49,834 nucleotides of DNA from sequence record OX638287; one strand, given 5' to 3'. The stretch's first letter is position 1. The number at the start of each line of letters is the position of its first letter. Source of the DNA: Escherichia phage UP30. The translations under genes were made by a program, and so were the position numbers. A model generated the notes under the pieces. That model was given only the letters and a program-made list of their open reading frames with translations. It had not been told where the DNA came from and ran no database searches. Positions 529-49,434 of this stretch are shown here, in pieces.

Positions 529-789
529 ATGAGCAAGATTAAGCATGACGCCCTGAAAGGTATTTTGATGCGACTGGAGCCGGGCGAGGCATTCCAGCTT
601 AACCCCGAAACGTTCGGATTCGTAGGCTTCTATCGGCTTGGCCTACAGATGAGTTCTCCAGCCGATGAGCTTGTCCGGTATGTGCGCAAGCAATTCGGTG
701 TCGAGATGATTAGTCTGGGCAAAGTGCAAGGCATCCAGCTATTTATCTTCAAGCCAAATAAGATTCGTTGCTTCACCCTGATGAAATAG
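529..789 (+). CDS. hypothetical protein (86 aa)
   Basis: ORF 523-789; second ATG at 529 has better spacing to AAGGAG (515-520); stop TAG is first triplet of dyad box. Confidence 0.5.
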   Translation: MSKIKHDALKGILMRLEPGEAFQLNPETFGFVGFYRLGLQMSSPADELVRYVRKQFGVEMISLGKVQGIQLFIFKPNKIRCFTLMK

Positions 790-835
790 CACTTTTTGTT
801 AAAACCGGATCGGGATAACCTGGTATAGTTATCCC
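787..835 (+). promoter_or_regulatory. early promoter module: dyad box + inverted repeat carrying TGgTATAGT
   Basis: tagcactttttgttaaaac 787-805; gggataacc...ggttatccc 812-835. Confidence 0.6.
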
Positions 836-860
836 ATCAACAACGAATGAGGAAGCGAAT

Positions 861-1055
861 ATGGAAACGCAAATTGACGTAGTGGTTGTTCAGCGTGACT
901 CTACTCATGAAAAGGGTCTGTTCAAGAAGGGAGTCGAAATCACGATAGATCTTGAGGATATGGTTGCATATCACTCGGGCCTCACCTGGAACGTGGTGCG
1001 CGTGGGTAGCGACTACAAACTCAAAGGATTTAACACTTACTTCGCGGAGGCTTAA
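861..1055 (+). CDS. hypothetical protein (64 aa)
   Basis: ORF with GAGGAAG RBS, preceded by box + hairpin promoter module. Confidence 0.55.
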   Translation: METQIDVVVVQRDSTHEKGLFKKGVEITIDLEDMVAYHSGLTWNVVRVGSDYKLKGFNTYFAEA

Positions 1056-1057
1056 TC

Positions 1058-1528
1058 ATGACAACAATCACTGTATTCTTGGCGAAAGACGAACTGGACG
1101 ACGAAATGTCATTCTTCGCGTTTGAGCACAGAACCGGATCGCACTGGCACACTTACAGCCACTACACGGTTATCTCAATCGAAGCGTACGACGGGGATTT
1201 GCTCACTGACAAGCTGAGTGATTTTATTGAAACTGTTAAGACTAGCGAAGGTTGCGAGTGGAAAGAAGATCATGAAGTTATGCGAATGTACGAGATGATT
1301 AATCCGGTTCGCCTTGAGTCGTTCGAGCTTGATCCTGATGTGACTATTAAGGTGAGAAAGCCTGGTGAGTTGTTGCCAGGGATGCGTGTGCTGACTGGTT
1401 GCACAGGCCGTAAGGTGTGGCGCACGGTATCGAAGGTTCGCCAGCGTTCAGAAACATGCTATAGCTTATTCTTTGAAGATGGTTGGAATGAGATGGCTGG
1501 TAGCGAAGTGAAGTACCTCACCAAATAG
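1058..1528 (+). CDS. hypothetical protein (156 aa)
   Basis: ORF, GGAGG RBS, stop TAG embedded in box. Confidence 0.6.
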   Translation: MTTITVFLAKDELDDEMSFFAFEHRTGSHWHTYSHYTVISIEAYDGDLLTDKLSDFIETVKTSEGCEWKEDHEVMRMYEMINPVRLESFELDPDVTIKVRKPGELLPGMRVLTGCTGRKVWRTVSKVRQRSETCYSLFFEDGWNEMAGSEVKYLTK

Positions 1529-1574
1529 CACGAATTGTTAAAACCGGATCGGGGTATCTTGATATAGTTACCCC
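1526..1574 (+). promoter_or_regulatory. early promoter module
   Basis: tagcacgaattgttaaaac; ggggtatcTTGATATAGTtacccc. Confidence 0.6.
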
Positions 1575-1606
1575 ATCGAAACGAGATACCAATCAGAGGA
1601 ATCACC

Positions 1607-1870
1607 ATGTCAATCGTCAAGAATCGCAAAGCAATCGAAGCTACCCGTCACAACAAGCAACACGCGATTTTCATCTCTCGCTACTGCTCAAATATCAATG
1701 ATGGCGCACAGTATCGACGCTATGCAGTTATTGAGCTTTCCCCGTACATTTACAAGGAGTATCTCGAGGATAACGGCAAATGGATTGAGACTGAAGGCAT
1801 GACGAGCTTCTTGATCTGGAATGGTGAATTTCAGGGTTATGACGATATCAGCACTTTAATTGAGGAATAA
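1607..1870 (+). CDS. hypothetical protein (87 aa)
   Basis: ORF preceded by promoter module and CCAATCAGAGGAAT leader. Confidence 0.55.
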   Translation: MSIVKNRKAIEATRHNKQHAIFISRYCSNINDGAQYRRYAVIELSPYIYKEYLEDNGKWIETEGMTSFLIWNGEFQGYDDISTLIEE

Positions 1871-1876
1871 ATAATT

Positions 1877-2104
1877 ATGCCGCGTTACAGCAATCTAACT
1901 CAACTAACCCGCGTCAACGGGCACATGATCCCGGCTAAATCTACTCACTGCGCGAAAGGCGCAAAGCACGGATTATATTTCAAGTGGCGCGGTCAATGGA
2001 ACTTCACGGCGGTGAGCAATTTTTACATGCGCGTTCCTGGTGATGACCCGCAATCGGTAGTAGAAAACTCAATCGGCGACAACAAGATCGAGGTACTAAA
2101 ATGA
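1877..2104 (+). CDS. hypothetical protein (75 aa)
   Basis: ORF, GAGGAATAA RBS. Confidence 0.5.
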   Translation: MPRYSNLTQLTRVNGHMIPAKSTHCAKGAKHGLYFKWRGQWNFTAVSNFYMRVPGDDPQSVVENSIGDNKIEVLK

Positions 2105-2211
2105 ACTTTAATACAGTAGCGCTATGGTCTGCCGTCTGGTTCTTCTGCATGGGTCACGTTATGGTCGGCATTGTGGTAATGCTTCTCCTGTGTGCGGGGG
2201 CGTTCGAATGA
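2101..2211 (+). CDS. putative small hydrophobic protein (36 aa, MNFNTVALWSAVWFFCMGHVMVGIVVMLLLCAGAFE)
   Basis: ATGA start/stop overlap with upstream gene and with next gene; hydrophobic; below the 60-aa ORF-track cutoff. Confidence 0.3.
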   Translation: MNFNTVALWSAVWFFCMGHVMVGIVVMLLLCAGAFE

Positions 2212-2381
2212 TGCGAATATTGATTTTCATGATGGCGGCGGTCGCCATGGCTATCCTGATAGTGTCAGGATGCGGAGAGGTCAGAGATAGCTGTCATAAG
2301 ACCGGGAACCAGGTTACTACGTTTGTGATGGTTGGCAACGTTCTGCTACCAATCACATCAAATGAAATCACTTGCGAATAG
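2208..2381 (+). CDS. putative lipoprotein (57 aa; signal peptide with lipobox IVSGC)
   Basis: In-frame internal ATGATG of ORF 2124-2381; N-terminal hydrophobic stretch then Cys lipobox. Confidence 0.4.
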   Translation: MMRILIFMMAAVAMAILIVSGCGEVRDSCHKTGNQVTTFVMVGNVLLPITSNEITCE

Positions 2382-2390
2382 GATTTAACA

Positions 2391-2582
2391 ATGGCTGATT
2401 TTATGCACCAAATGATTGCAGTATTCAAAGGCAGCGATGACCAGGAAGTGAAAGAGTGCTTTACCGTTGACAAGCCTTATAGTGCGTCGCTTACCAGCTT
2501 CGGGAACATCTCATTGCTTGATGATAATGGAGATCCCTGGATATTCGACGAAGATACTGATTGCTTCGAAATTAAAGAATAG
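2391..2582 (+). CDS. hypothetical protein (63 aa)
   Basis: ORF, stop TAG is start of box. Confidence 0.5.
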   Translation: MADFMHQMIAVFKGSDDQEVKECFTVDKPYSASLTSFGNISLLDDNGDPWIFDEDTDCFEIKE

Positions 2583-2628
2583 CACTTTTTGTTAAAACTC
2601 AATATAGGGGTTGCGCTATAGTAACCCC
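2580..2628 (+). promoter_or_regulatory. early promoter module
   Basis: tagcactttttgttaaaac; ggggttgcgcTATAGTaacccc. Confidence 0.6.
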
Positions 2629-2653
2629 ATCGACAACGAGCGAGGACGATAGC

Positions 2654-3142
2654 ATGAAAATCAAATTACTTTGCACTGGCGGTTATAAAGGCTTTACCCG
2701 AGATCTGGAAGCAGACCCTATCGTGGTTGATGCGGTGAAGTGTGATGATAGCCTCGGCGGCTACCGCGTGAAGTTTGACGACCTGGTTAAAGCTGGTGTG
2801 TACGATCTGGATTATGGACTTTCGGTTAGCCCGGTAGTCGGCCCGGCAGATTTCAACGAGAAGGACGGAACGATGTTCTTTTTTGAATGGGAAGTGCAAT
2901 CAAACATCAAGCCGCGCAAGGTTCGTCTTCTCAGCAATGGCGGCTACCCTATGCGCCCAGGTTATGAGAATCGCACGTTCCCGGTTATCGTTGACTTTGA
3001 AGAAATCACCGCACACTTAGCTTATATCAACGGTGAACAGCTTAATGCTGTTGGATTCGTGGGAGGTATGAATCAAGAGGCGCTATGCTTCTTCCATTGT
3101 AAAGCCGAGCCGTTCGATATTGAGTGCGAATTGGTTTACTAA
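2654..3142 (+). CDS. hypothetical protein (162 aa)
   Basis: ORF after promoter module, GAGGA RBS. Confidence 0.6.
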   Translation: MKIKLLCTGGYKGFTRDLEADPIVVDAVKCDDSLGGYRVKFDDLVKAGVYDLDYGLSVSPVVGPADFNEKDGTMFFFEWEVQSNIKPRKVRLLSNGGYPMRPGYENRTFPVIVDFEEITAHLAYINGEQLNAVGFVGGMNQEALCFFHCKAEPFDIECELVY

Positions 3143-3183
3143 GCACGAATTGTTAAAAGTGGATTTGGCCTGACTGGTATAAT
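3141..3183 (+). promoter_or_regulatory. early promoter module
   Basis: aagcacgaattgttaaaag; TGgTATAAT 3175-3183. Confidence 0.55.
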
Positions 3184-3213
3184 CCCCACATCAACCACTA
3201 AGAGGAAATCATT

Positions 3214-3720: not shown

Positions 3721-3869
3721 TGGTTACCTGGGTTTTGATTATCCTGATGAGCAATGGACCGGATCACGTATATATGAACAGCCAGCATTCATGCAATGAG
3801 GCTCGGGCAGTCATTGCAGATAACAAGCCGTTCGGATACGAAGTAAAAACTATGTGCGTTAAACGATAG
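3720..3869 (+). CDS. putative small protein (49 aa, MVTWVLIILMSNGPDH...)
   Basis: TAATG overlap with upstream stop, GAGGTG RBS, stop TAG embedded in box; hydrophobic N-terminus. Confidence 0.4.
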   Translation: MVTWVLIILMSNGPDHVYMNSQHSCNEARAVIADNKPFGYEVKTMCVKR

Positions 3870-3914
3870 CACGAATTGCTAAACCTTCCGCAAGGCCATT
3901 TGATATAGTGGCCT
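3867..3914 (+). promoter_or_regulatory. early promoter module
   Basis: tagcacgaattgctaaac; aaggccatTTGATATAGTggcctt. Confidence 0.6.
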
Positions 3915-3949
3915 TATTGAAGCAGGGCAACCAATCAGAGGAATCAGCT

Positions 3950-4427: not shown

Positions 4428-5080
4428 AATTTGAATGCGTATCTAGTAGCGGATCTGGTTTCAAGTATGGAAAAACTTACGAAGGTGTTCGCGTAAATGA
4501 TGACAGTTTTATCATTACAGCTGAGAACGGTTGCAATGTGAACGTTGTTCGACGTAACGAATACCAGGAAATTTTCCTGCCGTATGGCGGTAGCTCAAAA
4601 TATATCTTCCATCGAATCGTAGATGGTGTTAAATTTAAAGACGTAATTGAAGCAATCAACCAACTACATAATAAAGAGGTAAAAACTATGAAATTCGAAT
4701 GTATCAGCGATAACACCAAAAAATTTACCGTTGGCAAAATCTACGACGCGCCGACTGAGAACGCAAAGCACACTGTAGCGCTAACCGATGACACGGGCCG
4801 CCACCGCATTGCAACCGTGACGCATAATGGCGAAGGTCTTCGCTGGAATAGCGGCGGCACTAAGTTTGCAACGTTCGGCAAGAAGAAGCGGAAATTTAAT
4901 ACCAGTCGAATCAAGGGCGATTTCCGCATCGAACATGGTAAGATTCACAGCGTTAAGCCAAGCGAAGTTGATGGTAAAGTCAAGCCTAAGCTGACCAACA
5001 AGGACATTGATAATCTGGCGAATCTGGCTATGGCTACCGTGCTTCTTATTTCTCTTATCGTGCTGTTTTTCGTAGTTTAA
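4424..5080 (+). CDS. membrane-anchored protein with two tandem MKFEC repeats (218 aa)
   Basis: Internal duplication (MKFECVSSSG... / MKFECISDNT...), C-terminal hydrophobic helix LAMATVLLISLIVLFFVV. Confidence 0.55.
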   Translation: MKFECVSSSGSGFKYGKTYEGVRVNDDSFIITAENGCNVNVVRRNEYQEIFLPYGGSSKYIFHRIVDGVKFKDVIEAINQLHNKEVKTMKFECISDNTKKFTVGKIYDAPTENAKHTVALTDDTGRHRIATVTHNGEGLRWNSGGTKFATFGKKKRKFNTSRIKGDFRIEHGKIHSVKPSEVDGKVKPKLTNKDIDNLANLAMATVLLISLIVLFFVV

Positions 5081-5088
5081 CTTAAAAT

Positions 5089-5120
5089 GGGAATCGTTCC
5101 TGAGCGGTTCCCTATTTTTA
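5089..5120 (+). terminator. intrinsic terminator
   Basis: 8-bp stem gggaatcg/cggttccc then TATTTTTA. Confidence 0.45.
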
Positions 5121-5237: not shown

Positions 5238-5456
5238 ATGGCTACTATCATGACAGCAGAAGATGCAGCACGCGACGCAGTGGAAGGAATGCGCCCAAAT
5301 AGCTCCAGAATCGCCCACTACTACAAATCTGAGGTGTCGGCAGTGCAATTGACCCACGAAATTTTAAGGCTCCCACAGGTCGATTCAGCGCGCGTAGTGA
5401 CGTGCTTAAAAAATTATTTTTGCATTGCTATTAAAACGAATAGCACGAATTGCTAA
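5238..5456 (+). CDS. hypothetical protein (72 aa)
   Basis: ORF with AAGGGTG RBS; stop TAA embedded in box. Confidence 0.35.
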   Translation: MATIMTAEDAARDAVEGMRPNSSRIAHYYKSEVSAVQLTHEILRLPQVDSARVVTCLKNYFCIAIKTNSTNC

Positions 5457-5488
5457 AACCTATCAAGGGGAATGCGCTATGATTCCCC
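5441..5488 (+). promoter_or_regulatory. early promoter module
   Basis: tagcacgaattgctaaaac; ggggaatgcgcTATGATtcccc. Confidence 0.55.
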
Positions 5489-5513
5489 TACACCAACAAG
5501 CGAGGAAACACAC

Positions 5514-5960
5514 ATGAAACACTTAATCTGTATTGAAGCACCTAACGATGAATACACTCTTCACGGCATTGGTATGTTCAAAGGTCACTATATGACCGCA
5601 AGCATTTACGACGCGCATCGAGGTGACGGCGATCTAATGATTAAGTCAAAAGAGGTTAATCCGTACATCATGCAGAATCTTGGTAATAACGAATATATGG
5701 CCTACGGATGCAATGCGGTTTACAAGCACATCAAGATCCGCAAGCGTGTAGTGCGTGCATTCAAGAAAATTGCAATGAAGCACTGGAAGATGAGCAAGAA
5801 GGACGCCGGACGCTGGGCGCGCAATGTTGCTGACTCATACTTCTACCGTAACGGTGAGTCCTGCTACTTCCTTATCGATGAACTTATGGAAAACTGCGGA
5901 GGCGACTTCAGCCAGATTAGCTTTGACGATTGGGCTAACTATGAGATTAGTTGCTGGTAA
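5514..5960 (+). CDS. hypothetical protein (148 aa)
   Basis: Track ORF starts at 5472 inside the hairpin; ATG 5514 follows GAGGAAACA RBS. Confidence 0.5.
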   Translation: MKHLICIEAPNDEYTLHGIGMFKGHYMTASIYDAHRGDGDLMIKSKEVNPYIMQNLGNNEYMAYGCNAVYKHIKIRKRVVRAFKKIAMKHWKMSKKDAGRWARNVADSYFYRNGESCYFLIDELMENCGGDFSQISFDDWANYEISCW

Positions 5961-6009
5961 TGGCACGAATTGCTAAAACTTGCTCAAGGGTATTTGATAG
6001 AATGCCCTT
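5961..6009 (+). promoter_or_regulatory. early promoter module
   Basis: tggcacgaattgctaaaac; aagggtatTTGATAGAATgccctt. Confidence 0.55.
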
Positions 6010-6043
6010 CGTTGAGTTAAGCAACCAATCAGAGGAATAAATC

Positions 6044-6685: not shown

Positions 6686-7258
6686 ATGAAAACAGCTATC
6701 ATTTTAAACGGCGCGCCGGGCGCTGGTAAGGACACTATCGGCGCAATCCTGGCTGACATTTACGATCACGTAGCTTTGCGCAGCTTCAAAGAGCCGATGT
6801 TTGAGATTGCTCGGGCAATACTTGGTGAAACTAACTACGAGTATTTCATGTTCTTGTATGAGGACCGTCGATACAAAGAAGAGCCAGCATCTATCCTGAA
6901 CGGTAAAAGCCCACGCCAGTTTATGATCTGGATTAGCGAAGAGGTAATCAAGCCACAGTTCGGCAATCGCTTCTTCGGTATGCGAGCGGAAAGTAAGGTG
7001 AAAGAGTCGTACTCCCTTTCGGTATTTACTGACGGTGGATTCAAAGATGAGATCTTGCAAATGATTGAAGGCGATATCCAGGTAAAGCTATGTCGAATCC
7101 ATCGCAACGGTTGCAACTTCGATAATGACAGTCGCGATTATATCTACCTGGATGATATGATCGGGGTCAACGGTTATCAGGAATGTGATTTCTTCTCTGT
7201 TGAGGGTCATCCTGAAATTACCGCTCAGCACATAGCCGCCACATTCATCAATAAATAG
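6686..7258 (+). CDS. P-loop kinase, dNMP-kinase-like (190 aa)
   Basis: N-terminal GAPGAGKDT Walker A of the GKDT type seen in phage dNMP kinases. Confidence 0.5.
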   Translation: MKTAIILNGAPGAGKDTIGAILADIYDHVALRSFKEPMFEIARAILGETNYEYFMFLYEDRRYKEEPASILNGKSPRQFMIWISEEVIKPQFGNRFFGMRAESKVKESYSLSVFTDGGFKDEILQMIEGDIQVKLCRIHRNGCNFDNDSRDYIYLDDMIGVNGYQECDFFSVEGHPEITAQHIAATFINK

Positions 7259-7303
7259 CACGAATTGCTAAAGCGTCGGTGGGGTGATTTGATATAGTTA
7301 CCT
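7256..7303 (+). promoter_or_regulatory. early promoter module
   Basis: tagcacgaattgctaaagc; TGaTATAGT 7290-7298. Confidence 0.55.
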
Positions 7304-7330
7304 CATCGACAACGAAGAGAGAAAATCGAA

Positions 7331-7540
7331 ATGATGGTATCAACTGATAAGCTTTTCACTTGCACTAAAACTTCTGAAGTATTCGAACTTATCCATACTG
7401 ATGATGGCGATTTCATGTATGACGGTTGCGACGCTTTCATTGAAGTGAAAGAAAGTGACTATGACGAAGGCGTTTATTATAATCCGGCAGTGAGCACTCA
7501 GTTTTTTACACCGATCGAAGAAGAAGGAGAAGGGGCATGA
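7331..7540 (+). CDS. hypothetical acidic protein (69 aa)
   Basis: ORF after promoter module. Confidence 0.5.
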   Translation: MMVSTDKLFTCTKTSEVFELIHTDDGDFMYDGCDAFIEVKESDYDEGVYYNPAVSTQFFTPIEEEGEGA

Positions 7541-9081: not shown

Positions 9082-9107
9082 TGGTAAAATAGCACTAAAT
9101 GTTAAAC
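9082..9107 (+). promoter_or_regulatory. terS promoter: extended -10 TGgTAAAAT directly followed by dyad box
   Basis: TGGTAAAAT 9082-9090; tagcactaaatgttaaac 9090-9107; ATG 9123. Confidence 0.45.
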
Positions 9108-9122
9108 AAAGAGGATGTATTT

Positions 9123-15784: not shown

Positions 15785-15812
15785 TTGACGCTTTAACAAA
15801 AAGTGCTATTAT
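15785..15812 (+). promoter_or_regulatory. strong sigma70-type promoter of capsid gene (TTGACG-16-TGcTATTAT) with inverted box in spacer
   Basis: -35 15785-15790, -10 15807-15812; box ttaacaaaaagtgctatta 15793-15811. Confidence 0.55.
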
Positions 15813-15816
15813 TGAA

Positions 15817-15845
15817 GCCGTGAACATAATCACGGCTTTTTTATT
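15817..15845 (+). terminator. hairpin + U-run in capsid gene 5' leader
   Basis: gccgtga-acataa-tcacggc then T6. Confidence 0.45.
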
Positions 15846-15863
15846 AACTAAGGAGAAATAATT

Positions 15864-19525: not shown

Positions 19526-19560
19526 TAAAATCATCGTATCAACTTTATTCACTTCGTTTT

Positions 19561-19578
19561 TAACAAAAAGTGCTATTA
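19561..19578 (-). promoter_or_regulatory. dyad box, inverted relative to downstream tail chaperone gene
   Basis: taacaaaaagtgctatta; followed by CCAATCAGGAG leader. Confidence 0.45.
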
Positions 19579-25722: not shown

Positions 25723-25764
25723 TGTATAATGGGTTCACCGATAAATAGCACAAAAAGGTAAACA
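25723..25764 (+). promoter_or_regulatory. J promoter: TGTATAAT then dyad box abutting RBS
   Basis: -10 TATAAT 25725-25730; tagcacaaaaaggtaaac 25746-25764; ATG 25767. Confidence 0.45.
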
Positions 25765-30433: not shown

Positions 30434-30462
30434 TTGTATGTCCTCGTCGTTAGTGTGATTGC

Positions 30463-30491
30463 ATTGTATGTCGCATTTACTTTTATTGCAA
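30463..30491 (-). promoter_or_regulatory. sigma70-type promoter of cor operon (TTGCAA-17-TACAAT)
   Basis: -35 30486-30491, -10 30463-30468 on minus strand. Confidence 0.5.
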
Positions 30492-30511
30492 TAGCTCGAT
30501 TACAATTTTTT

Positions 30512-30695
30512 CGTGTAACAGGTGTCTATTTTTGTAACCGGAATAGGTGTTACAAAATCGACCCCATCCGACCGCAGGGAGATATGATAAAAACTCTATA
30601 TAATATATATAGATAGATAATATTTAATTTTAGCTTTATATATATAATTATTGTTGTGTAACAGTTGTCTATCGTGTAACAGGTGATTTGATTGA
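30512..30695. repeat. direct repeats cgtgtaacaggtg (x2) and gtgtaacagNtgtctat (x2) flanking an AT-rich block
   Basis: 13-mer at 30512-30524 and 30673-30685; TGTAAC/GTTACA 7 times in 30514-30854. Confidence 0.6.
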
Positions 30696-30900
30696 TTCGT
30701 CAAATTTCTATCATATATGTTCAAAATTTAATCAATAGGGATTCCATTTATGGATATCTATGTATTTCTAAGAAAAAGCGGTTACAAGTGTTACGCAATA
30801 GACAGCACACAAAAACTGACTCAAGTTATTGATTCAGTTGATGCTGGTTGTAACTTGAGCAATATAGACACGCAATTACACACCAATTACATGTATTCGA

Positions 30901-30928
30901 TTGACTAAATGCTGTTAATGGCTATAAT
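30901..30928 (+). promoter_or_regulatory. canonical sigma70 promoter of recombination module (TTGACT-16-TATAAT)
   Basis: -35 30901-30906, -10 30923-30928, AAGGAG 30945-30950. Confidence 0.6.
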
Positions 30929-30959
30929 GGATTCATCGTAAACGAAGGAGATAAACGCA

Positions 30960-32024: not shown

Positions 32025-32026
32025 AC

Positions 32027-32074
32027 GGCACAAATAGCTAAACAAGTAATTAATGAGGTGTTATAATGCACCTC
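32027..32074 (+). promoter_or_regulatory. degenerate promoter module upstream of erf
   Basis: ggcacaaatagctaaac; hairpin gaggtgTTATAATgcacctc. Confidence 0.45.
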
Positions 32075-35020: not shown

Positions 35021-35042
35021 AGTATAAACTCCTTAAGTAAAT

Positions 35043-35092
35043 AGCATGAATTGCTAAACACTGATTTTATCATTGCGCTAATGGTCTTGCAA
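35043..35092 (-). promoter_or_regulatory. tail fibre promoter (TTGCAA-17-TGaTAAAAT) with dyad box at the start site
   Basis: -35 35087-35092, -10 35064-35069 on minus; box 35043-35061. Confidence 0.5.
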
Positions 35093-36077: not shown

Positions 36078-36132
36078 CGCGTAGAAGGATGTTACCCCGC
36101 TACGCGTCGTTTGTTTTAACTAAAAATGCTAT
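36078..36132 (-). promoter_or_regulatory. dyad box plus downstream hairpin/U-run upstream of primase
   Basis: Box 36114-36132 (minus sense tagcatttttagttaaaac); stem acgcgtag/ctacgcgt 36078-36110. Confidence 0.45.
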
Positions 36133-36568
36133 TGGTCGTTCCGATATCTTCCTTCTTCACCACTCGCATAAACTTCTTGTTCTTGCATCGCTTCTCAAGG
36201 CACTTGCCGTTACCGTCAAACTTGAGGTCGAATCGCAACCATGCCGCGCGGTATCCTTTACACCCCTGGCGACGGTAAGCGCGATGTGCAGCTTCAGCAC
36301 CTTGCCACGAAATCATATTGCGCTCTTTCCAGCCTTGCACGGTCTGATTACTAACTTTCAGAGCCTTTGCGCAGGCCGCCGGGCCACCATAATATTCGAT
36401 AAGAGCATCAAGTCGCGCTCGCAGTCCGGCGCGTGTTTCTTCTTTATGGATATAGAATCCGCAGCGTTGGCGAGGCTTTTTATCTTTACCGCGTCGGGTT
36501 CCATTGTTACCATTGATGTGACGTTTATCGATTTCACCAGTTGACTCGGCAATTCGTTGCATATTCAT
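36116..36568 (-). CDS. DNA-binding protein with Cro-like HTH and possible N-terminal HNH-like motif
   Basis: ACAKALKVSNQTVQGW helix-turn-helix; RHINGNNG resembles an HNH core; AGGAG RBS. Confidence 0.45.
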   Translation of the reverse strand: MNMQRIAESTGEIDKRHINGNNGTRRGKDKKPRQRCGFYIHKEETRAGLRARLDALIEYYGGPAACAKALKVSNQTVQGWKERNMISWQGAEAAHRAYRRQGCKGYRAAWLRFDLKFDGNGKCLEKRCKNKKFMRVVKKEDIGTTNSIFS

Positions 36569-36581
36569 CTTGATTCTCCTG

Positions 36582-36648
36582 TAGCACTTTTTGCTAAAAA
36601 CGTTTACTGTATGCCGTGTATTATAGCGTAAACGTTACAACGATTCAA
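36582..36648. promoter_or_regulatory. bidirectional promoter region sharing one palindromic -10 (TATTATAG)
   Basis: Box 36582-36601; plus -10 tattat 36619-36624; minus TATAAT 36620-36625 with -35 TTGAAT 36643-36648. Confidence 0.5.
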
Positions 36649-38680: not shown

Positions 38681-39093
38681 TTACAGACAAAGGTGATTAT
38701 TTAGAGTTTTACGAACGAGATCCCAGCGACACACGAAAGGAGGACGCGCACCAGGTAGATTGCGTGTCCTGGCTGAAATACAATTTCCCACATCTTCTAT
38801 TTTGGCACACTGTAAATGAAGGTGAAAAAACAATCACCTCGGCGCTCAGGGATGAGCAGGCTGGGTTACTTAAAGGAGTGTCAGACTTCGTTATCCTGAT
38901 TGGTGTAAACTCACGCTACCCGTTCGCAGCTATCGAACTCAAGCGGGTTAATAAGTCCGGCAAGGGAAAGGCGTCACCAGTCAGCGATAAGCAAAAGGAA
39001 TTTCTCCGCAATGTTCGTCAACGAGGTGGATTTGCTGCGGTTGCATATGGATTGGAGCAATTCAAGATCGCAATTTACGAAATGATGAAATAG
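38677..39093 (+). CDS. VRR-NUC-type nuclease
   Basis: PD-(D/E)xK-like core (VSDFVIL...AAIELK); ATGA overlap with helicase. Confidence 0.6.
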   Translation: MITDKGDYLEFYERDPSDTRKEDAHQVDCVSWLKYNFPHLLFWHTVNEGEKTITSALRDEQAGLLKGVSDFVILIGVNSRYPFAAIELKRVNKSGKGKASPVSDKQKEFLRNVRQRGGFAAVAYGLEQFKIAIYEMMK

Positions 39094-39135
39094 CACTTTT
39101 TGTTAAAACTGCCGGAATGGAATCTGGCATTATTA
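39091..39135 (+). promoter_or_regulatory. promoter module upstream of dam
   Basis: tagcactttttgttaaaac; TGgCATTAT. Confidence 0.5.
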
Positions 39136-39160
39136 CCTCACCGAAACGAGAGGACTAAAA

Positions 39161-39874
39161 ATGAAAGACTTTAATGACATTGAAACTATCGACTTTGCAG
39201 AAACTGGTTGCTCATTCACTCGCGAAGCAATAGCATCAGGCGGTTATTATCAGGCATTGAAAACGCCAACCTGTAAAGAAATCTCCGGTCGTCGATATAA
39301 GGGAACAAATACGCCTGACGCAGTTCGTGATTTATGGTCTACCCCACGAGAGGTTATTGCATACCTTGAGGGTCGTTACGGAAAATACGATCTCGATGCT
39401 GCGGCAAGCGAAGAAAATAAAGTTTGCGAGAAGTTTTATTCTCAGGAAACAAACTGCTTAAAACGTTGGTGGGGTAAGAGCAAGCACGTTTGGTTAAATC
39501 CTCCTTACAGCCGCCCTGATATATTCGTCAAAAAGGCGATTGAGCAAATGGAGCACAACAATCAGATCGATATGTTGTTACCTGCCGATAATTCGACGGC
39601 GTGGTTTACTGAGGCTCGACAGCACGCGGCTGAAATTATCTGGATTGAAGCGGATTTGACTGAAGATATCGACGGTAACGAGTATGCTCGATCCGGTCGC
39701 CTGGCCTTCATATCCGGTGAAACTGGAAAGGCGGTTGACGGTAATAACAAAGGTTCGGTAATTTTCATTATGCGCGAACTGAAAGAAGGTGAGGTTCAAC
39801 AGACCCACTACATTCCAATCACAAGCATTTGCCCTTCGGTGAAGAACAAACGAGCAAAAGTGAGGAAAGTATGA
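39161..39874 (+). CDS. dam: DNA N6-adenine methyltransferase (phage Dam-like)
   Basis: YDLDAAAS and NPPYS motifs. Confidence 0.7.
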   Translation: MKDFNDIETIDFAETGCSFTREAIASGGYYQALKTPTCKEISGRRYKGTNTPDAVRDLWSTPREVIAYLEGRYGKYDLDAAASEENKVCEKFYSQETNCLKRWWGKSKHVWLNPPYSRPDIFVKKAIEQMEHNNQIDMLLPADNSTAWFTEARQHAAEIIWIEADLTEDIDGNEYARSGRLAFISGETGKAVDGNNKGSVIFIMRELKEGEVQQTHYIPITSICPSVKNKRAKVRKV

Positions 39875-40122
39875 TGAACGAAAAAATGATTCCGGTTAAG
39901 TTAACTGAGCAAGGCTTATGGCTTCTTTATCGCGCTACGTGCTGCGAAATCATGGAACAAAACGGATTGACGAAAGATGTTATTGGTTGCGACTTATGGG
40001 AGTTTACCAGTTCTCTTGATATGTCATTCGACGAGATAAAGAATGAACACATTGATTATTGGCCTTCGCTCATACAAAGAGACGTAGAAGAATTTAAATC
40101 TGATACGATCGCACAGCACTAA
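39871..40122 (+). CDS. hypothetical protein (83 aa)
   Basis: In-frame ATG of ORF 39829-40122, ATGA overlap with dam stop. Confidence 0.45.
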   Translation: MMNEKMIPVKLTEQGLWLLYRATCCEIMEQNGLTKDVIGCDLWEFTSSLDMSFDEIKNEHIDYWPSLIQRDVEEFKSDTIAQH

Positions 40123-40157
40123 TTGCTAAAACTACCCGGCGAAAGTCGGGTATAGTT
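40115..40157 (+). promoter_or_regulatory. promoter module
   Basis: agcactaattgctaaaac; cccggcgaaagtcggg then TATAGT. Confidence 0.5.
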
Positions 40158-40188
40158 ATTTCATCGAAACGAAATGAGGAATCAGAAG

Positions 40189-40398
40189 ATGGCACGCATT
40201 AACGCAAACTTTTTCAATATCGCCCAGCAGTCTGCAAAAATGGCCGTTCATATTACGAGTAAGCAAGGTGGCAACTTCGATTGGGATATTGCTATGAACT
40301 TCCTTAAAATGTCTTATTACCGTTGCTCGGTTGAAGAAGTCGAATGCTTCATCTCTGACGTGGAGAAATTAACTAATGCTGATAAAAAAGCAAGGTAA
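40189..40398 (+). CDS. hypothetical protein (69 aa)
   Basis: ATG 40189 after promoter module and GAGGAATCAGAAG leader. Confidence 0.5.
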   Translation: MARINANFFNIAQQSAKMAVHITSKQGGNFDWDIAMNFLKMSYYRCSVEEVECFISDVEKLTNADKKAR

Positions 40399-40648
40399 GC
40401 GCGAAGTGTGGGAGCATGCAAAGGAATGCGGGATCTCAGGCGATATAGCACTAATCGCTAAATACTTCGATATAAAGGATGTTAGCATTATTTCAAACGG
40501 CAAGATTTCATTTATGGAAGATATGCCGAGAAAAATGCATAGAGTACCAGCTACTCCATCGCTTGAGTTTTACCGTGAAGAAGGAAAGAGAATTGAACGA
40601 GAACGAAAAGCAGCAAAAAACATCAAGTCTTCCCGGCTTAAATATTAA
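40376..40648 (+). CDS. hypothetical protein (90 aa), overlaps next ORF in another frame
   Basis: Track ORF; possible frameshift partner of 40479-40880. Confidence 0.3.
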   Translation: MLIKKQGKREVWEHAKECGISGDIALIAKYFDIKDVSIISNGKISFMEDMPRKMHRVPATPSLEFYREEGKRIERERKAAKNIKSSRLKY

Positions 40649-40958: not shown

Positions 40959-42110
40959 ATGTCACAAGCTAAAATCACTACCGAGCAACTAATCGAAGAG
41001 CGCATGAACGGCCTAACGCTTCGCGAGATCGCGGAAAAGTACGGTATGCATATCCGCACGGTTGAAGCGCGTCACGCCAAACTTGCAAAAGAAGGCCACT
41101 TTCACGGTAACGAGCATGTTGCTAAAAACGTTCCAGAAGGCTTCATGGTTAAAGGTACATCAACGATGATTCGAGGTGATGGGACCGAAGTGGTCCGCTG
41201 GGTTAAGACAGATCAGGATCGTGAGAAGATTGCCGCAATGATGGAAGCGGCTCGTATTGCATTCTGCGAAGACCTGCCGCGAGCAAAGCCAACCGAGCTA
41301 CTCACCTCGCAAGGACTTACAACCGCGATCGGTAAGCTGGCGCTCTATCCGGTATTCGACCTTCACATCGGCGCGCTTGCTCACAAGCATGAGTGCGGAG
41401 AGAACTACTCTACCGACGTAGCTGAAAAAGTGCTGGGCGACTTCTTCAATTATGCGATCGATATCGCGCCAAATGCAGAGAAAGCCGTTCTGTTAATCGG
41501 CGGTGACTTCCTTCACTCTGACGGCCTTGACGCTGTAACCCCGGCAAGCGGTCACGTTCTGGATCAGGATTCACGATACGCTAAGTTGGTGCATGTAGCG
41601 ATTCGATCGGTGCGACGAGCTATCGACAAAATGCTGACGAAACACAAAGAAGTCGAAGTCCAGGTCATTGAAGGAAACCACGACCAATCAGGAATGATTT
41701 GGCTGCGCGCTGCAATGGCTGCATACTATGAAGACGAGCCGCGAGTATTCGTTGACGTGAGTCCTATGATTCTGCATAAGACTCGCTGGGGCAATACCTT
41801 GCTGGGATACACTCACGGTCACACGATGAAAAAGGCCGACATTCGACTTGCAGCAATGGCGGCAGACTTCCGCGCAGACTTCGGTGAAAGCAAATACGTG
41901 TACACGCACAGCGGACACTGGCATCATCAGACAATCACTGAACACTCGTTAGGAATTGATGAGGTTCACGGGCAGTTAGGAGCGAAGGATGCATACGCCG
42001 CGCGAGGCGGGTGGCGCTCATATCGCCAAGCGGCGGTAATCGTTTACGACAAGCAATTTGGTGAGATAGGTCGATTCATCTATCGTCCAGAAATGACAGG
42101 ATCGCACTAA
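40959..42110 (+). CDS. calcineurin-like metallophosphoesterase with N-terminal HTH
   Basis: DLH, GDFLHSDG, EGNHD, GHT, GHWHH motifs; LTLREIAEKYGMHIRTVEARH helix-turn-helix. Confidence 0.65.
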   Translation: MSQAKITTEQLIEERMNGLTLREIAEKYGMHIRTVEARHAKLAKEGHFHGNEHVAKNVPEGFMVKGTSTMIRGDGTEVVRWVKTDQDREKIAAMMEAARIAFCEDLPRAKPTELLTSQGLTTAIGKLALYPVFDLHIGALAHKHECGENYSTDVAEKVLGDFFNYAIDIAPNAEKAVLLIGGDFLHSDGLDAVTPASGHVLDQDSRYAKLVHVAIRSVRRAIDKMLTKHKEVEVQVIEGNHDQSGMIWLRAAMAAYYEDEPRVFVDVSPMILHKTRWGNTLLGYTHGHTMKKADIRLAAMAADFRADFGESKYVYTHSGHWHHQTITEHSLGIDEVHGQLGAKDAYAARGGWRSYRQAAVIVYDKQFGEIGRFIYRPEMTGSH

Positions 42111-42150
42111 TTGCTAAAAACGCCCGAAGGGATTCGGGCATAGTAACCAC
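42104..42150 (+). promoter_or_regulatory. promoter module
   Basis: gcactaattgctaaaaac; gcccgaagggattcgggc then CATAGT. Confidence 0.5.
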
Positions 42151-42173
42151 ATCGAAAACAAATAGGTAATATC

Positions 42174-45675: not shown

Positions 45676-45696
45676 CACAATGAACTCCTTAGTTGA

Positions 45697-45750
45697 CGGT
45701 GTAAATGATACACCGCCAATGGTACACGCGTTTTGCAAAAAGTGCTATTA
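45697..45750 (-). promoter_or_regulatory. promoter module (minus strand)
   Basis: Minus-sense tagcactttttgcaaaac; hairpin with TATCAT; AAGGAG. Confidence 0.5.
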
Positions 45751-45751
45751 G

Positions 45752-46168: not shown

Positions 46169-46199
46169 TGCGCTCACTCCTGATTGGTTTTCTTGAATA

Positions 46200-46256
46200 A
46201 GGCCACTTTATCAAATGACCTTACGGCAATATTAACAAATCGTGCTATTTACCAGG
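46200..46256 (-). promoter_or_regulatory. promoter module (minus strand)
   Basis: Minus-sense tagcacgatttgttaat; aaggtcatTTGATAAAGTggcctt. Confidence 0.5.
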
Positions 46257-46458: not shown

Positions 46459-46462
46459 TAAA

Positions 46463-46687: not shown

Positions 46688-46715
46688 TTCTAATTCCTTT
46701 GTTTCGTTTGGTGTG

Positions 46716-46767
46716 GGAGTAATATATATCACTCCCGATTGTATGTCTTTAGCAATTCGTGCTATCA
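46716..46767 (-). promoter_or_regulatory. promoter module (minus strand)
   Basis: Minus-sense tagcacgaattgcta; gggagTGATATATAttactccc. Confidence 0.5.
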
Positions 46768-47225: not shown

Positions 47226-47241
47226 TATTCCCCCTAACCGT

Positions 47242-47806: not shown

Positions 47807-47831
47807 GATTCTTTCCTCATTTGCTGTTGAT

Positions 47832-47880
47832 GGGATGACTATACCAGCCATCCCGGATGCGCGTTTAGCAATTCGTGCTA
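47832..47880 (-). promoter_or_regulatory. promoter module (minus strand)
   Basis: Minus-sense tagcacgaattgctaaac; gggatggcTGGTATAGTcatccc. Confidence 0.55.
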
Positions 47881-48216
47881 TTAAGCAATATCGAACTCAG
47901 CGGCATATGCTTCCTTGAAGCCAGCTTCACGCATGGTGCGCTTGCTGATTTTGCGCTGGAATTTGTACTGGCTGTTAGGCATAACCCACCAGAAGCAGGC
48001 AGTTTCACGAACGATTTCATATTTACCGTAACGGGTGAAGGTGTCGCGTTCCATATCCGGCTGATTTACACAGGTCAGGAATTTAGCTGCCTTGTCTTCA
48101 GTTTTGATTTCTTCCCACACGAAGGAATCCATACCGTTAACCTTGCAAGCTACCATGATGTACTCAACGCCGTTTTCGATTTTGATGATTTCGTTACCGC
48201 GATTTTCGTATTTCAT
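47881..48216 (-). CDS. hypothetical protein (111 aa)
   Basis: ORF after promoter module; stop overlaps next box. Confidence 0.55.
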   Translation of the reverse strand: MKYENRGNEIIKIENGVEYIMVACKVNGMDSFVWEEIKTEDKAAKFLTCVNQPDMERDTFTRYGKYEIVRETACFWWVMPNSQYKFQRKISKRTMREAGFKEAYAAEFDIA

Positions 48217-48249
48217 TTTCCTGTTCCTGATGTGTATCTCGTTTCGATG

Positions 48250-48298
48250 AGGTAATTATGCCAAATCACACCGATCGAGTTTTAACAAAAAGTGCTAT
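48250..48298 (-). promoter_or_regulatory. promoter module (minus strand)
   Basis: Minus-sense tagcactttttgttaaaac; ggtgtgatttgGCATAATtacctc. Confidence 0.5.
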
Positions 48299-48986
48299 TT
48301 GCGATCGCTTTGAAAAATCCCCTGGGTGATAGCGATCGTATCAGCTTGGTCTTTGCAGACTTGCCGCCCAGCTTGTTCTGCTGCGCAGAGTACCCGTCAG
48401 GCAGATTTACTGGTTTTCTCTCCGGCATGACAAAGTCATCCGAGGTCCACAGGCACGTCTTCTTCGGGTAAGCATCGCGCGGCGCAATATACATCGGGAA
48501 CCAGGGGTGTACGTCATTCTCCGGTAGATAGCCGCCATACTCCCAGGGGTCGAAAGTGTGGTCAGCTTTACGCCAGGCAGATGAAAGAACGCTCACCGGA
48601 TTCTCAATGATGTAAGTCACGCCCAGGCTATCGCCAATGTTCGCAGCAATCCGGGCGGTGGCAACAGCTTTCTCCTGGAATAGCGGATCACGTTCACGCT
48701 TGCTGGCAAAATGACGAGCGCCGCTAACAGCCAGGTCAGTGCACGGCGGGAATGCCATAATGAAATCCGGCTTGCCATACACACCCGCGATCGCATCTCG
48801 CTCGAACTTCTCACCAATGAAGACGTTCACATACTCAATATTCGGATGCTCCACCCGGGCATTGTGCTTTGCATAATCTCCGTGATCGGCTCCGTCAAAG
48901 TTGAAGCACATCACCTTATAGCCTTGCTTTGCCAGTTCATGACCAGCCAGGCCGGAACCGTCGAATAGTGACCAGATTAATTTCAT
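48282..48986 (-). CDS. DNA (cytosine-5)-methyltransferase-like protein
   Basis: LFDGSG (motif I-like), PPCTDLAVSG (Pro-Cys motif IV-like), IIENPV (ENV-like); ATG 48986. Confidence 0.5.
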   Translation of the reverse strand: MKLIWSLFDGSGLAGHELAKQGYKVMCFNFDGADHGDYAKHNARVEHPNIEYVNVFIGEKFERDAIAGVYGKPDFIMAFPPCTDLAVSGARHFASKRERDPLFQEKAVATARIAANIGDSLGVTYIIENPVSVLSSAWRKADHTFDPWEYGGYLPENDVHPWFPMYIAPRDAYPKKTCLWTSDDFVMPERKPVNLPDGYSAQQNKLGGKSAKTKLIRSLSPRGFFKAIANSTFC

Positions 48987-49022
48987 TTGTTGCATTCTCC
49001 TGATTAACCTTATCGCTTACCC

Positions 49023-49148
49023 TTATCGCTTACCCTGACCGTTGCAAGCCGGACACGTGATTCGCTGCATTGTCCAGACTCCAGTGAATAAAGGAACCAG
49101 GGTAAATCCACGACCAGCGCACTGACTACAAACCTGTTTAACTTTCAT
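49023..49148 (-). CDS. putative small zinc-ribbon protein (41 aa; CSQC...CPAC)
   Basis: ATG 49148 after CCAATCAGAAGAGGAAG leader, in-frame within ORF 49023-49217. Confidence 0.4.
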   Translation of the reverse strand: MKVKQVCSQCAGRGFTLVPLFTGVWTMQRITCPACNGQGKR

Positions 49149-49164
49149 TGCTGCTTCCTCTTCT

Positions 49165-49227
49165 GATTGGTTGATGTGATGAATCATACCCTGCCAACCT
49201 GGTCCAGTCGTTAGCAAAAAATGCTAT
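49165..49227 (-). promoter_or_regulatory. promoter module (minus strand)
   Basis: Minus-sense atagcattttttgctaac; TATGAT; CCAATCAGAAGAGG leader. Confidence 0.45.
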
Positions 49228-49413
49228 TCCAATAATTGCTTATTATTCCATCAATGCTGGAATAGGTGGAATAATTTTGATTCCGATTGATTGCAAATGA
49301 TGAAACATGATTATTGCATGGTGTGCAACAGTTGGTTGATTTATTGCTGAGATTACAATGATTGTGAGAGGGAGGATCTAGTGTTACCCGGTTCGCCTGG
49401 TAGTCATCTCCAT
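49228..49413 (-). ncRNA. candidate non-coding transcript between two minus-oriented dyad boxes
   Basis: No ORF >21 aa on either strand; bracketed by boxes; ATTCC/GGAAT repeat cluster. Confidence 0.2.
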
Positions 49414-49434
49414 TTTTAGCAAAAAGTGCTACCG
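49414..49434 (-). promoter_or_regulatory. dyad box without adjacent ORF
   Basis: Minus-sense tagcactttttgctaaaa; next 190 nt leftward have no ORF >21 aa. Confidence 0.4.

Follow-up and report, generated by a model that had tools for sequence, protein, structure and literature searches.

The genome of Escherichia phage UP30, analysed here as a stretch of 49,834 nucleotides (sequence record OX638287; hereafter the window), carries an intergenic repeat whose copies are probably marboxes, read by the host activators MarA, SoxS and Rob (and RamA), in promoters that are mostly of the class II mar/sox/rob type. The window belongs to a T1-like siphovirus, about 89% identical to JMPW1, ADB-2 and Shfl1. 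This assignment rests on the identity of the box with the published consensus, the micF-like geometry of the promoters, the orientation rules of the copies, their enrichment and conservation, their occurrence in the phage IME_EC2, and the fact that no reader encoded by the phage could be detected. In the class II promoters, which number about 20 and belong to early, replication and lysis-region genes, the activator would lie over the −35 region, contact both region 4 of σ70 and the C-terminal domain of the polymerase α subunit (α-CTD), and recruit RNA polymerase. At one class I copy (49413-49432), MarA, SoxS or Rob would recruit polymerase to a promoter with its own −35, and at five copies overlapping the core promoter or the early transcript (those of terS, the major capsid gene, J, the tail fibre gene and a helix-turn-helix (HTH) gene) the bound regulator would hinder polymerase. 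The phage would in this way borrow a host stress-regulon activator for most of its promoters, and the sites would be phage-borne additions to the well-known marbox promoters, unexpected in place and number. We infer from the sequence the actual binding, the acting paralogue, the activation or repression and the start sites.

The box itself provides the first argument. A logo was built from 102 unique copies in six genomes; between −50 and −31 relative to the predicted start of transcription (+1), its sequence is A T a G C A C n n W T T G Y T A A A a c, i.e. the box is an asymmetric 20-mer, ATAGCACnnWTTGYTAAAAC. The E. coli soxbox/marbox consensus AYNGCACNNWNNRYYAAAYN (PMC2064960) is matched at every specified position but 19, where the phage copies have A in 70% and C in 20% of cases and where micF also has A. 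The 15-mer GCAnnWWnTGnnAAA of the Grainger laboratory, described as a non-palindromic target of MarA, SoxS and Rob and, in other enterics, of RamA (PMC12052159), agrees with the phage logo at 10/10 specified positions, which explains why −42/−41 are strictly W and why −37 is C or T. The proteins of the MarA family are monomers with two HTH motifs that read CAC(G/T)-7N-AAA (PMC8811837), and the phage box is CAC(T/G)-7N-AAA. Besides, the GCAC of the A-box is 98-100% conserved and forms the most invariant part of the logo; changes in this A-box cost Rob 7-100-fold in affinity, those in the B-box 2-4-fold (PMC8279559). When the boxes are set against the DNAs used in crystal structures, namely micF (...ACAGCACTGAATGTCAAAAC...) and mar (...ATGCCACGTTTTGCTAAATC...) (PMC8279559), the GAAT-type phage box equals the micF marbox at 14/20 positions and the TTTT/C-type the mar marbox at 16/20.

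The repeat had been described, in a sequence-only reading of the window, as a dyad box in about 27 intergenic copies. The literal pattern of its title, TAGCAC-N5-TG(C/T)TAAAAC, has 0 matches even with 2 mismatches, its spacer being one base too long; the box as worded in the text of that reading, TAGCA-N5-TGYTA (equal to TAGCAC-N4-TGYTAAA), is present as described. With up to 2 mismatches, TAGCAC-N4-TGYTAAA gives 29 matches, compared to 2.29 ± 1.43 (maximum 7) in the control of 100 dinucleotide shuffles of the window. Among the 27 positions listed, 24 are copies with at most 2 mismatches (46236 and 36114 corresponding to the copies at 46231-46247 and 36115-36131), and all but two or three are genuine; 23498 is degenerate, and 32027, weak as a dyad, is yet a perfect match to the marbox 20-mer. 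A copy at 40446 had been overlooked, and a 2-mismatch match at 39482 lies within the dam gene and is probably due to chance.

Counted with the published patterns, the window holds 21 sites with at most 1 mismatch to the 20-mer, for 0.89 expected (maximum 3), and 21 perfect 15-mers, for 0.97 expected. By mismatches to the 20-mer, the window copies number 4 with none, 16 with one, 5 with two, 3 with three and 1 with four. The control phages give 0 and 1 (λ) or 3 and 0 (T7) matches to the 20-mer and the 15-mer, respectively, and no class II composite (a marbox at fixed distance from a −10) in either; T1-like genomes give 9-21 matches to the 20-mer and 12-21 to the 15-mer, Vc1 being the lowest, with 12-16 class II composites per genome, but 4 in Vc1.

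As regards the dyad symmetry and the dimeric regulator deduced from it, the alignment speaks against both: the most conserved positions (A−50, C−44, T−40, A−34 and A−33) break the symmetry, and G−47 is 98% conserved, while its symmetry partner −37 is C in 58% and T in 39% of the copies. The full asymmetric 20-mer, beyond the half-sites, is also kept in the inverted copies.

The second argument is the fixed arrangement of the promoters. A −10-like hexamer begins 22 bp after TTGYTA in 17 window copies and 23 bp after it in 3; counted from the end of the 20-mer, the spacer is 18 bp (17 copies) or 19 bp (3 copies), and 103 copies with the 18-bp spacing were found across six T1-like genomes (window, JMPW1, T1, Rtp, TAH8 and YP10S2). 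The earlier remark that the box stands too far upstream to serve as a −35 was correct, and its fixed distance to an often extended −10 makes it a promoter component. The hexamers are TATAGT, TATAAT, TATGAT or CATAGT, often with TGn (an extended −10 in 10/16 copies examined), and are followed seven nucleotides further by a conserved A, then by a conserved leader (CATCGAAACGA) and a ribosome-binding site (RBS). In the 20 window composites, the box lies 69-83 nt from the start codon, and in 18/20 the stop codon of the upstream open reading frame (ORF) falls inside the box or at most 4 nt before it, as had been noticed. In the logo, A−11 and T−7 were selection criteria (hence 102/102), and T−12 occurs in 84/102 copies; G−14 (88/102) and A+1 (89/102) were not selected for and are nevertheless conserved, which supports a σ70-type core promoter. 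Positions −35 to −30 read AAAACN in the composites, leaving no recognisable −35 hexamer before a canonical −10 and start. The 20-mer is thus centred at −40.5, all +1 positions being predicted. The class II arrangements of the window, the plus-strand copies before the minus-strand ones, are the following.

786..836, plus strand: class II promoter; marbox 786-805, 18-bp spacer with a stem-loop arm, −10 TATAGT 824-829, predicted +1 A 836, gene at 861.
1525..1575, plus strand: class II promoter; −10 TATAGT 1563-1568, predicted +1 1575, gene start 1607.
2579..2629, plus strand: class II promoter; −10 TATAGT 2617-2622 without TG motif, predicted +1 2629, gene start 2654.
3140..3190, plus strand: class II promoter; AAGCAC box variant, −10 TATAAT 3178-3183, gene start 3214.
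3866..3916, plus strand: class II promoter; 0 mismatches to the 20-mer, −10 TATAGT 3904-3909.
5440..5490, plus strand: class II promoter; −10 TATGAT 5478-5483, gene start 5514.
5960..6010, plus strand: class II promoter of the polynucleotide kinase gene (6044); TGGCAC box variant, −10 TAGAAT 5998-6003.
7255..7305, plus strand: class II promoter; −10 TATAGT 7293-7298, 15-bp stem-loop from −30 to +6, gene start 7331.
36581..36631, plus strand: class II promoter of the helicase gene (start 36662); −10 TATTAT 36619-36624.
39090..39140, plus strand: class II promoter of the dam methylase gene (start 39161); spacer-type hairpin, −10 CATTAT 39128-39133.
40113..40163, plus strand: class II promoter; spacer-type hairpin TACCCGGCGAAAGTCGGGTA, −10 TATAGT 40151-40156.
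40445..40495, plus strand: marbox without mismatch to the 20-mer, followed at class II distance by a weak −10 TAGCAT.
42101..42151, plus strand: class II promoter before the lysis-region genes; spacer-type hairpin, −10 CATAGT 42139-42144.
36082..36132, minus strand: marbox of class II geometry before the primase gene; 2 mismatches to the 17-mer, −10 TAACAT in the loop of the HTH gene's terminator.
45698..45748, minus strand: class II promoter of the DNA helicase gene; −10 TATCAT 45705-45710.
46198..46248, minus strand: class II promoter; −10 TAAAGT 46205-46210.
46714..46765, minus strand: class II promoter with 19-bp spacer; −10 TATATT 46721-46726.
47831..47881, minus strand: class II promoter; 0 mismatches to the 20-mer, −10 TATAGT 47838-47843.
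48248..48298, minus strand: class II promoter; −10 CATAAT 48255-48260.
49176..49227, minus strand: class II promoter with 19-bp spacer; TAGCAT box variant, −10 TATGAT 49183-49188.

Three observations concern these loci. Paralogous promoters share, also across genera, the leader that follows the predicted +1 (CATCGAAACGA...) and a recurrent RBS context (ACCAATCAGAGGA), for instance at 836-860 and 1575-1606; these may constitute a translation or stability element. The gene at 861-1052 encodes a 64-residue product that matches Pfam PF25180, 'Phage antiviral trigger protein Gp54' (E = 9e-36). Finally, a 90-residue ORF at 40376-40648, kept in 7/7 comparison genomes and matching phrog_2817 (E = 1e-31), is unannotated in T1 and JMPW1 and overlaps the annotated ST17-like ORF in a different frame.

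The composite finds its closest counterpart in micF and the other class II mar/sox/rob promoters, which have the same asymmetric 20-bp marbox in the forward orientation, with GCAC distal and AAA proximal. The micF promoter, the class II Rob/SoxS/RamA promoter whose structure has been solved, consists of a 20-bp marbox, 18 bp, TAGAAT and 7 nt to the RNA 5' end (PMC13335620); it shares with the phage composite the 18 bp to the −10, the centre at about −41, the lack of a −35, and the canonical −10 and start. More generally, genome-wide mapping in Salmonella showed that MarA, SoxS and RamA sites cluster at about −41 (forward) and at −62 and −72 (reverse), that class II promoters lack a −35 (mean of 1.9/6 matches) and have canonical −10 elements and starts (cf. 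PMC8811837), and that σ70 region 4 is displaced at micF (PMC10268841). A marbox centred at −40.5 therefore explains why the box had appeared too far from the −10 to be a −35. The phage sites differ from the chromosomal ones in that about 20 copies occur per 50 kb of lytic genome, whereas chromosomal marboxes are single, and in that they are much nearer to the consensus than typical chromosomal marboxes, which are described as degenerate. Other features belong to the phage only: a stem-loop fills the 18-bp spacer and the discriminator, the stop codon of the upstream gene lies within the site, and binding is predicted from sequence.

Activator sites that replace the −35 are familiar from phages: the T4 MotA box (centred at −30, with AsiA), Mu Mor at Pm (about −43.5) and the λ cII site (TTGC-N6-TTGC). 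These systems resemble the window in having, at many phage promoters, a box in place of the −35 before a σ70 −10, with polymerase recruitment to be expected. They differ in that their activator is phage-encoded, whereas in the window no phage reader is detectable and the site belongs to a host regulon. As candidates for the box itself, the T4 MotA box, the λ cII repeats, an UP element and a σ32 −10 (CCCCAT) were rejected on position or spacing. A σ54 promoter (TGGCAC-N5-TTGCW) was likewise discarded, AG replacing GG and the two elements being separated by 8 nt instead of 10, i.e. 2 bp short.

Another possibility is that the RNA polymerase holoenzyme reads the box alone, through a displaced −35-like TTGYTA and an UP-like A/T element contacted by the α-CTD, an idea whose UP-element part was put forward for phage TLS (PMC11447400). 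TTGYTA indeed equals TTGACA at 4/6 positions, TTTTT-N3-AAAA recalls the T-tract/A-tract layout of UP elements, and the element is found in unrelated phages of the same hosts and is invariant across hosts. However, the 22 bp from TTGYTA to the −10 are incompatible with the geometry of σ70 regions 2 and 4. The element also lies 8-9 bp downstream of the canonical UP position (−50..−31 instead of −57..−38), its core AGCAC is not A/T-rich, the GAAT-type copies have no T-tract, and neither −35-like nor UP-like features account for the reverse and core-overlapping copies, all of which makes recognition by the holoenzyme alone improbable.

The composite is also conserved beyond the window: it is unchanged in T1, JMPW1, Rtp (Braunvirinae) and the Klebsiella phage TAH8 (Webervirus), and likewise in the Yersinia phage YP10S2 and, intact or partly intact, in the Drexlerviridae Vc1 and Motto. 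The activator family is itself conserved in Escherichia, Klebsiella and Yersinia hosts (PMC12052159), and a composite that stays unchanged across Drexlerviridae infecting such hosts favours the marbox assignment.

A further property of the class II promoters is that they contain stem-loops. The segment from −31 to +6 has a mean folding energy of −11.5 kcal/mol and a mean z of −3.1 compared to shuffles, with z < −2 in 75% of the 102 copies. Among 126 class II copies from eight genomes, 111 have a stem-loop, which brackets the −10 in 81 and lies in the spacer, abutting the −10, in 30, the remaining 15 having none; examples in the window are found at 812-835, 1551-1574, 3891-3914, 7274-7310 and 40134-40153. 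The bracket type has a fixed register, in which −24..−17 pairs with −1..−8, and stem sequences that are wholly different between copies; at least 7/8 pairs are formed in this register by 30 copies, compared to 0-3 in each of eight shifted registers. The arms fill exactly the nucleotides that are free of marbox and −10 constraint. Since transcripts of the promoter itself begin no earlier than the 3' arm, the stem-loop can form only in read-through RNA (or in DNA), and these structures probably bring the upstream transcription unit to an end or stabilise it. Three such hairpins carry a terminator annotation in the T1 record, and the hairpin TACCCGGCGAAAGTCGGGTA of the promoter at 40113..40163, whose T1 counterpart is annotated in this way, is terminator-like by scan. 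Intrinsic terminators as a general explanation were nevertheless rejected, a T-rich tail being present in only 12/30 spacer-type and in none of the bracket-type hairpins, and so was a cruciform that would shorten the spacer, on position or spacing.

The box, too, could be thought to act in RNA, as a 5-bp hairpin, a 3'-UTR (untranslated region) or leader element, or else as a 'stoperator', i.e. a protein roadblock to elongation. In transcripts of the upstream gene, the box forms the 3' end, with the stop codon in or next to it in 18/20 cases; the C/T at −37 preserves the pairing with G−47, as G-C or G·U; and several copies abut ribosome-binding sites. Such a role is nonetheless very unlikely: the strict 18-bp distance to the −10 and the conserved +1 A indicate a promoter function at the DNA level, the inverted TGTTA-type copies give an A·C mismatch, no compensatory double changes occur, and the whole asymmetric 20-mer, beyond the stem, is kept in both orientations. 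The RNA hairpin offered as an alternative by the sequence-only reading is weak on the same grounds.

The marbox assignment is further supported by the copies that do not stand at −40.5. The sequence-only reading had distinguished a second positional class at terS, the capsid gene, the tail chaperone gene, J and the tail fibre gene, and this class is real. The arrangements concerned, together with the HTH gene, are listed below.

49413-49432 (arrangement 49413..49483, plus strand): class I marbox, reverse, centred at −60.5 from the predicted +1 49483.
9082..9108, plus strand: terS promoter; extended −10 TGGTAAAAT (9082-9090) after a terminator.
9089-9108: terS marbox, forward, at −8..+12 of TGGTAAAAT, centre +2.
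15785..15812, plus strand: promoter of the major capsid gene, TTGACG (15785-15790)-16-TATTAT (15807-15812).
15790-15809: capsid marbox, reverse; fills the spacer and supplies TGn and the first −10 bases, centre −20.
19557..19576, minus strand: tail-chaperone marbox, reverse, 21 nt before the start codon.
25725..25764, plus strand: J/tail-tip gene; −10 TATAAT 25725-25730 after a terminator.
25745-25764: J marbox, forward, at +9..+28, centre +18.5; contains the RBS and ends 2 nt before the ATG.
32025..32044, plus strand: marbox between recE and erf; 0 mismatches to the 20-mer, 21 nt before the erf ATG.
35041..35092, minus strand: promoter of the tail fibre gene, TTGCAA (35087-35092)-17-TAAAAT (35064-35069).
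35041-35060: tail fibre marbox, reverse, at −3..+17, centre +7.
36116-36568 (with promoter 36116..36648), minus strand: Cro-fold HTH gene; −35 TTGAAT 36643-36648, −10 TATAAT 36620-36625.
HTH gene leader: marbox, reverse, the same site as the helicase-promoter marbox (36581..36631), at +14..+33 of the divergent HTH promoter, centre +23.5.

The class I copy stands upstream of a rightward promoter (−35 TTGTCA 49448-49453, 17-bp spacer, −10 TAGAAT 49471-49476), and the same arrangement is found in JMPW1 and T1; it is the single window copy that follows the class I rule of a reverse marbox lying 53-85 bp before the start of a promoter with a good −35, its start being predicted. The capsid arrangement recurs in T1, YP10S2, Vc1 and Motto, and the tail fibre arrangement in T1, Rtp and YP10S2, the orthologous sequences having been read by eye. 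No convincing core promoter was identified in the vicinity of the tail-chaperone marbox, and no usable −10 for erf near the marbox at 32025..32044. A possible role of the box as an antisense, minus-strand promoter at the capsid and tail genes was considered and rejected, the −10 of that strand not being kept among the window, T1 and YP10S2.

Repressing marboxes that overlap the core promoter are known at rob, purA and hdeA. In E. coli, marboxes centred between −35 and +25 count as core-promoter-overlapping, and MarA, SoxS and Rob repress pbpG through a site in the spacer (PMC12052159). Marboxes of this repressing type lie in the −35/−10 spacer or over the start, and the capsid copy lies in the spacer as at pbpG; the phage differs in that some copies reach out to +9..+33, where they contain or abut the RBS, and in that repression is deduced by analogy. 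The earlier proposal of a single regulator, activating where the site is upstream and repressing where it covers the core promoter or start, thus fits the data, with the host proteins in the place of a dimer: the positions −40.5 forward, −60.5 reverse and −20 to +23.5 all have precedents for MarA, SoxS and Rob (PMC12052159, PMC10268841), which supports the logic of one regulator.

Two other stretches of the window were noted. At 15785-15863, the strong capsid promoter TTGACG-16-TATTAT is directly followed by a terminator-like hairpin (15816-15837) and a T run, ahead of the RBS, which is an odd order. Between cor and recE, about 500 bp (30434-30959) are non-coding and include a near-consensus promoter without marbox, TTGACT-16-TATAAT (30901-30928); this region may be an immediate-early promoter or an origin region.

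The question of the reader was approached from the phage side as well. The sequence-only reading had named no candidate regulator: a host candidate can now be proposed in MarA, SoxS and Rob (and RamA), and its negative stands as far as a phage-encoded reader is concerned. Searches (tblastn) of eight T1-like genomes and IME_EC2 with MarA, SoxS and Rob probes, which recognised one another at 1e-31 to 1e-41, returned no homologue, only noise, and no AraC-type Pfam domain was found in the 37 window proteins screened. The IME_EC2 protein gp22 was considered as MarA-like on a marginal match (E = 0.015) and dropped when Pfam gave no support. Apart from the HTH gene product, the core-gene screen recognised no DNA-binding domain in other core small proteins.

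That product, of the T1 ST23 / Rtp52 family, has 150 amino acids, a sub-threshold Cro/YdaS HTH match and a match to phrog_2856, 'transcriptional regulator'. A dimeric phage regulator of this kind, with 36116-36568 as the candidate, could bind the partial dyad TAGCA-N5-TGYTA, centred at −42, and act as a class II-type early activator and late repressor, which gives the model of the sequence-only reading a candidate. It is the sole core early protein with a DNA-binding signature, and its AlphaFold core (pLDDT >93, residues ~40-140) can be superposed on Xfaso-1 Cro and N15 Cro, both of them dimeric all-α proteins (TM ~0.71-0.74). The gene is core in 824 phage records, and it has its own near-consensus σ70 promoter, back to back with the helicase promoter and with a box in its leader, in 69/71 distinct loci; the half-site centres of the dyad are 10 bp apart. 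Several data nevertheless make this candidate improbable. The phage IME_EC2 has six perfect boxes, five with the same spacing to the −10, and no HTH homologue. The recognition helix is variable (SNQTVQGW / TPQAVEEW / SIQVVQQW / PYGTVRHW) whereas the box is invariant, which runs against the covariation of helix and half-site that is documented for Cro proteins (PMC6649833). Besides, the most conserved positions of the box are asymmetric, unlike the equal half-sites of a Cro/CI operator, the divergent helicase promoter accounts for the box in the HTH leader, and the marbox consensus covers every conserved position and spacing. The homologues of the HTH protein in IMG/VR are at least 50% identical throughout and belong to T1-like contigs that are similar in size.

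With regard to the HTH gene and its product, three further observations can be mentioned. The protein has an invariant, basic N-terminal segment of low confidence (IDKRxxNGNNGTxRGxD...R), more conserved than the recognition helix. The gene has one of the few canonical σ70 promoters of the genome, with a −10 that overlaps the −10 of the divergent helicase promoter. About 20 'Campylobacter phage' records (e.g. MG065663; host Campylobacter jejuni) encode the T1-like HTH protein in genomes of T1-like size, and their host assignment looks doubtful.

The phage IME_EC2 deserves a closer description. A scan of IMG/VR for the composite matched, besides T1-like contigs, Enterobacteria phage IME_EC2 (NC_047742), a Murrayvirus podovirus with 59% guanine plus cytosine and P22-like virion genes, unrelated to the T1-like phages. 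Its boxes stand at 60 (plus strand) and at 4757, 7067, 28266, 36229 and 37537 (minus strand), and it has 7 matches to the 20-mer, 6 perfect 15-mers and 5 class II composites. Its genes in common with the window are limited to those for primase, helicase, VRR-NUC, RecE, Erf and two methylases, and no HTH gene lies between the primase and the helicase of this T1-like replication/recombination module. In addition, the T4-like Escherichia phage Lw1 (KC801932, 176 kb) carries on the minus strand at 7489 a marbox, 18 bp, TGTTATATT, a CACATCGAAACGA leader, an RBS and an ATG, with no T1-like genes nearby, a cassette that looks like the horizontal transfer of a promoter-plus-gene unit. That phages with unrelated virion and early genes but the same host range share the element indicates a host reader.

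A host reader need not belong to the MarA family, and Lrp, whose consensus by systematic evolution of ligands by exponential enrichment (SELEX) is YAGHAWATTWTDCTR, is one such alternative: TAGCA...TGCTA fits YAGHA...TDCTR (PMC5554404), and the IME_EC2 result favours a host factor. However, position 6 of the 15-mer, at which Lrp favours A/T, is an invariant C in the box, and the motif that Lrp recognises in vivo is AGAATwwwATTCT. An Lrp site would also leave out the conserved A−50 and A−34/−33 flanks, and Lrp offers no precedent of a single site fixed at −41. A reading of the box by Lrp or another host DNA-binding protein is therefore most improbable.

Some points weigh against a reading of the marboxes by these host activators. 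MarA and SoxS, induced by stress and Lon-labile, are scarce in unstressed cells, and Rob is abundant but largely inactive without inducers such as bile salts or dipyridyl; T1 grows well in ordinary, unstressed laboratory culture, the host can dispense with marA, soxS and rob, and the loss of these genes is not known to affect T1-like phages. It may be that the marboxes do no more than modulate promoters with basal activity, which is to be expected from the TGn extended −10 elements. Motto and Vc1 are deposited with hosts (Pseudomonas and Vibrio, respectively) in which the regulator set is not established; Vc1 has 4 intact class II composites and many mismatched boxes, compared to 14 composites in its close relative Motto, a deficit that may reflect site decay in a host without the regulators, or mean nothing. 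A non-homologous phage protein with the same specificity could also be the reader. Furthermore, the phage B-box is as strongly kept as the A-box, while Rob is reported to rely mainly on the latter (PMC8279559), and binding, transcription and starts are all predicted from the nucleotide sequence.

The repeat as such has been published before, without an explanation. In the 2004 paper on the T1 genome, such repeats were reportedly termed 'perhaps enhancers'. The 2024 re-annotation of phage TLS by Kropinski and co-workers describes a 21-nt direct repeat, aaATAGCACnnnTTGnTAAAA, in 21 copies, oriented along transcription about 76 nt before start codons and also present in T1, Rtp and Rogue1, finds only three σ70-like intergenic promoters, and leaves the role of the repeat undecided between a stoperator, an enhancer-binding site and an UP element (PMC11447400). 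It is the same element as the box of the window, follows the same orientation rule and stands likewise about 76 nt before the start codon. Not in that paper, and reported here, are the constant distance to the −10, the identity with the marbox, the class I and core-overlapping copies and the hairpins. Literature searches found neither start-site or transcriptome data for any of the Drexlerviridae nor a paper linking marboxes, Rob or SoxS to T1-like phages.

A wider hypothesis, rather unlikely at present, is that neither T1-like phages nor Murrayviruses possess their own transcriptional programme and that the host mar/sox/rob system runs a passive, replication-coupled timer from early to late expression and a sponge. 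MarA, SoxS or Rob would activate the approximately 20 class II early promoters while occupying the core-overlapping marboxes of the late genes; once host DNA is degraded, the unstable MarA and SoxS would decay, and the remaining Rob would be titrated by hundreds of replicated genomes with about 25 consensus sites each, so that the early promoters would fade and the late promoters (terS, capsid, J and tail fibre) would be released. The load of sites would also act as a sponge and collapse the efflux and porin stress response of the host. If this were true, expression would be raised in multidrug-resistant hosts derepressed for mar, sox or ram, and in the bile-rich gut.

Finally, should the marbox assignment itself be true, it would explain both the intergenic repeats of T1-like phages, noted in 2004 and still unexplained in 2024, and the near-absence of canonical σ70 promoters from their genomes. 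It would also provide engineering parts, in the form of compact, near-consensus class II marbox promoter cassettes with built-in insulating hairpins. The phage genome may then titrate the regulators, and the host activator may act as an early/late timer. The whole early programme of a very common lytic family, to which the Klebsiella Weberviruses favoured in phage therapy belong, would depend on the multidrug-resistance regulators MarA, SoxS, Rob and RamA, and phage expression, and possibly burst size or latency, would follow host stress, bile or salicylate, and mutations in marR, soxR or ramR.

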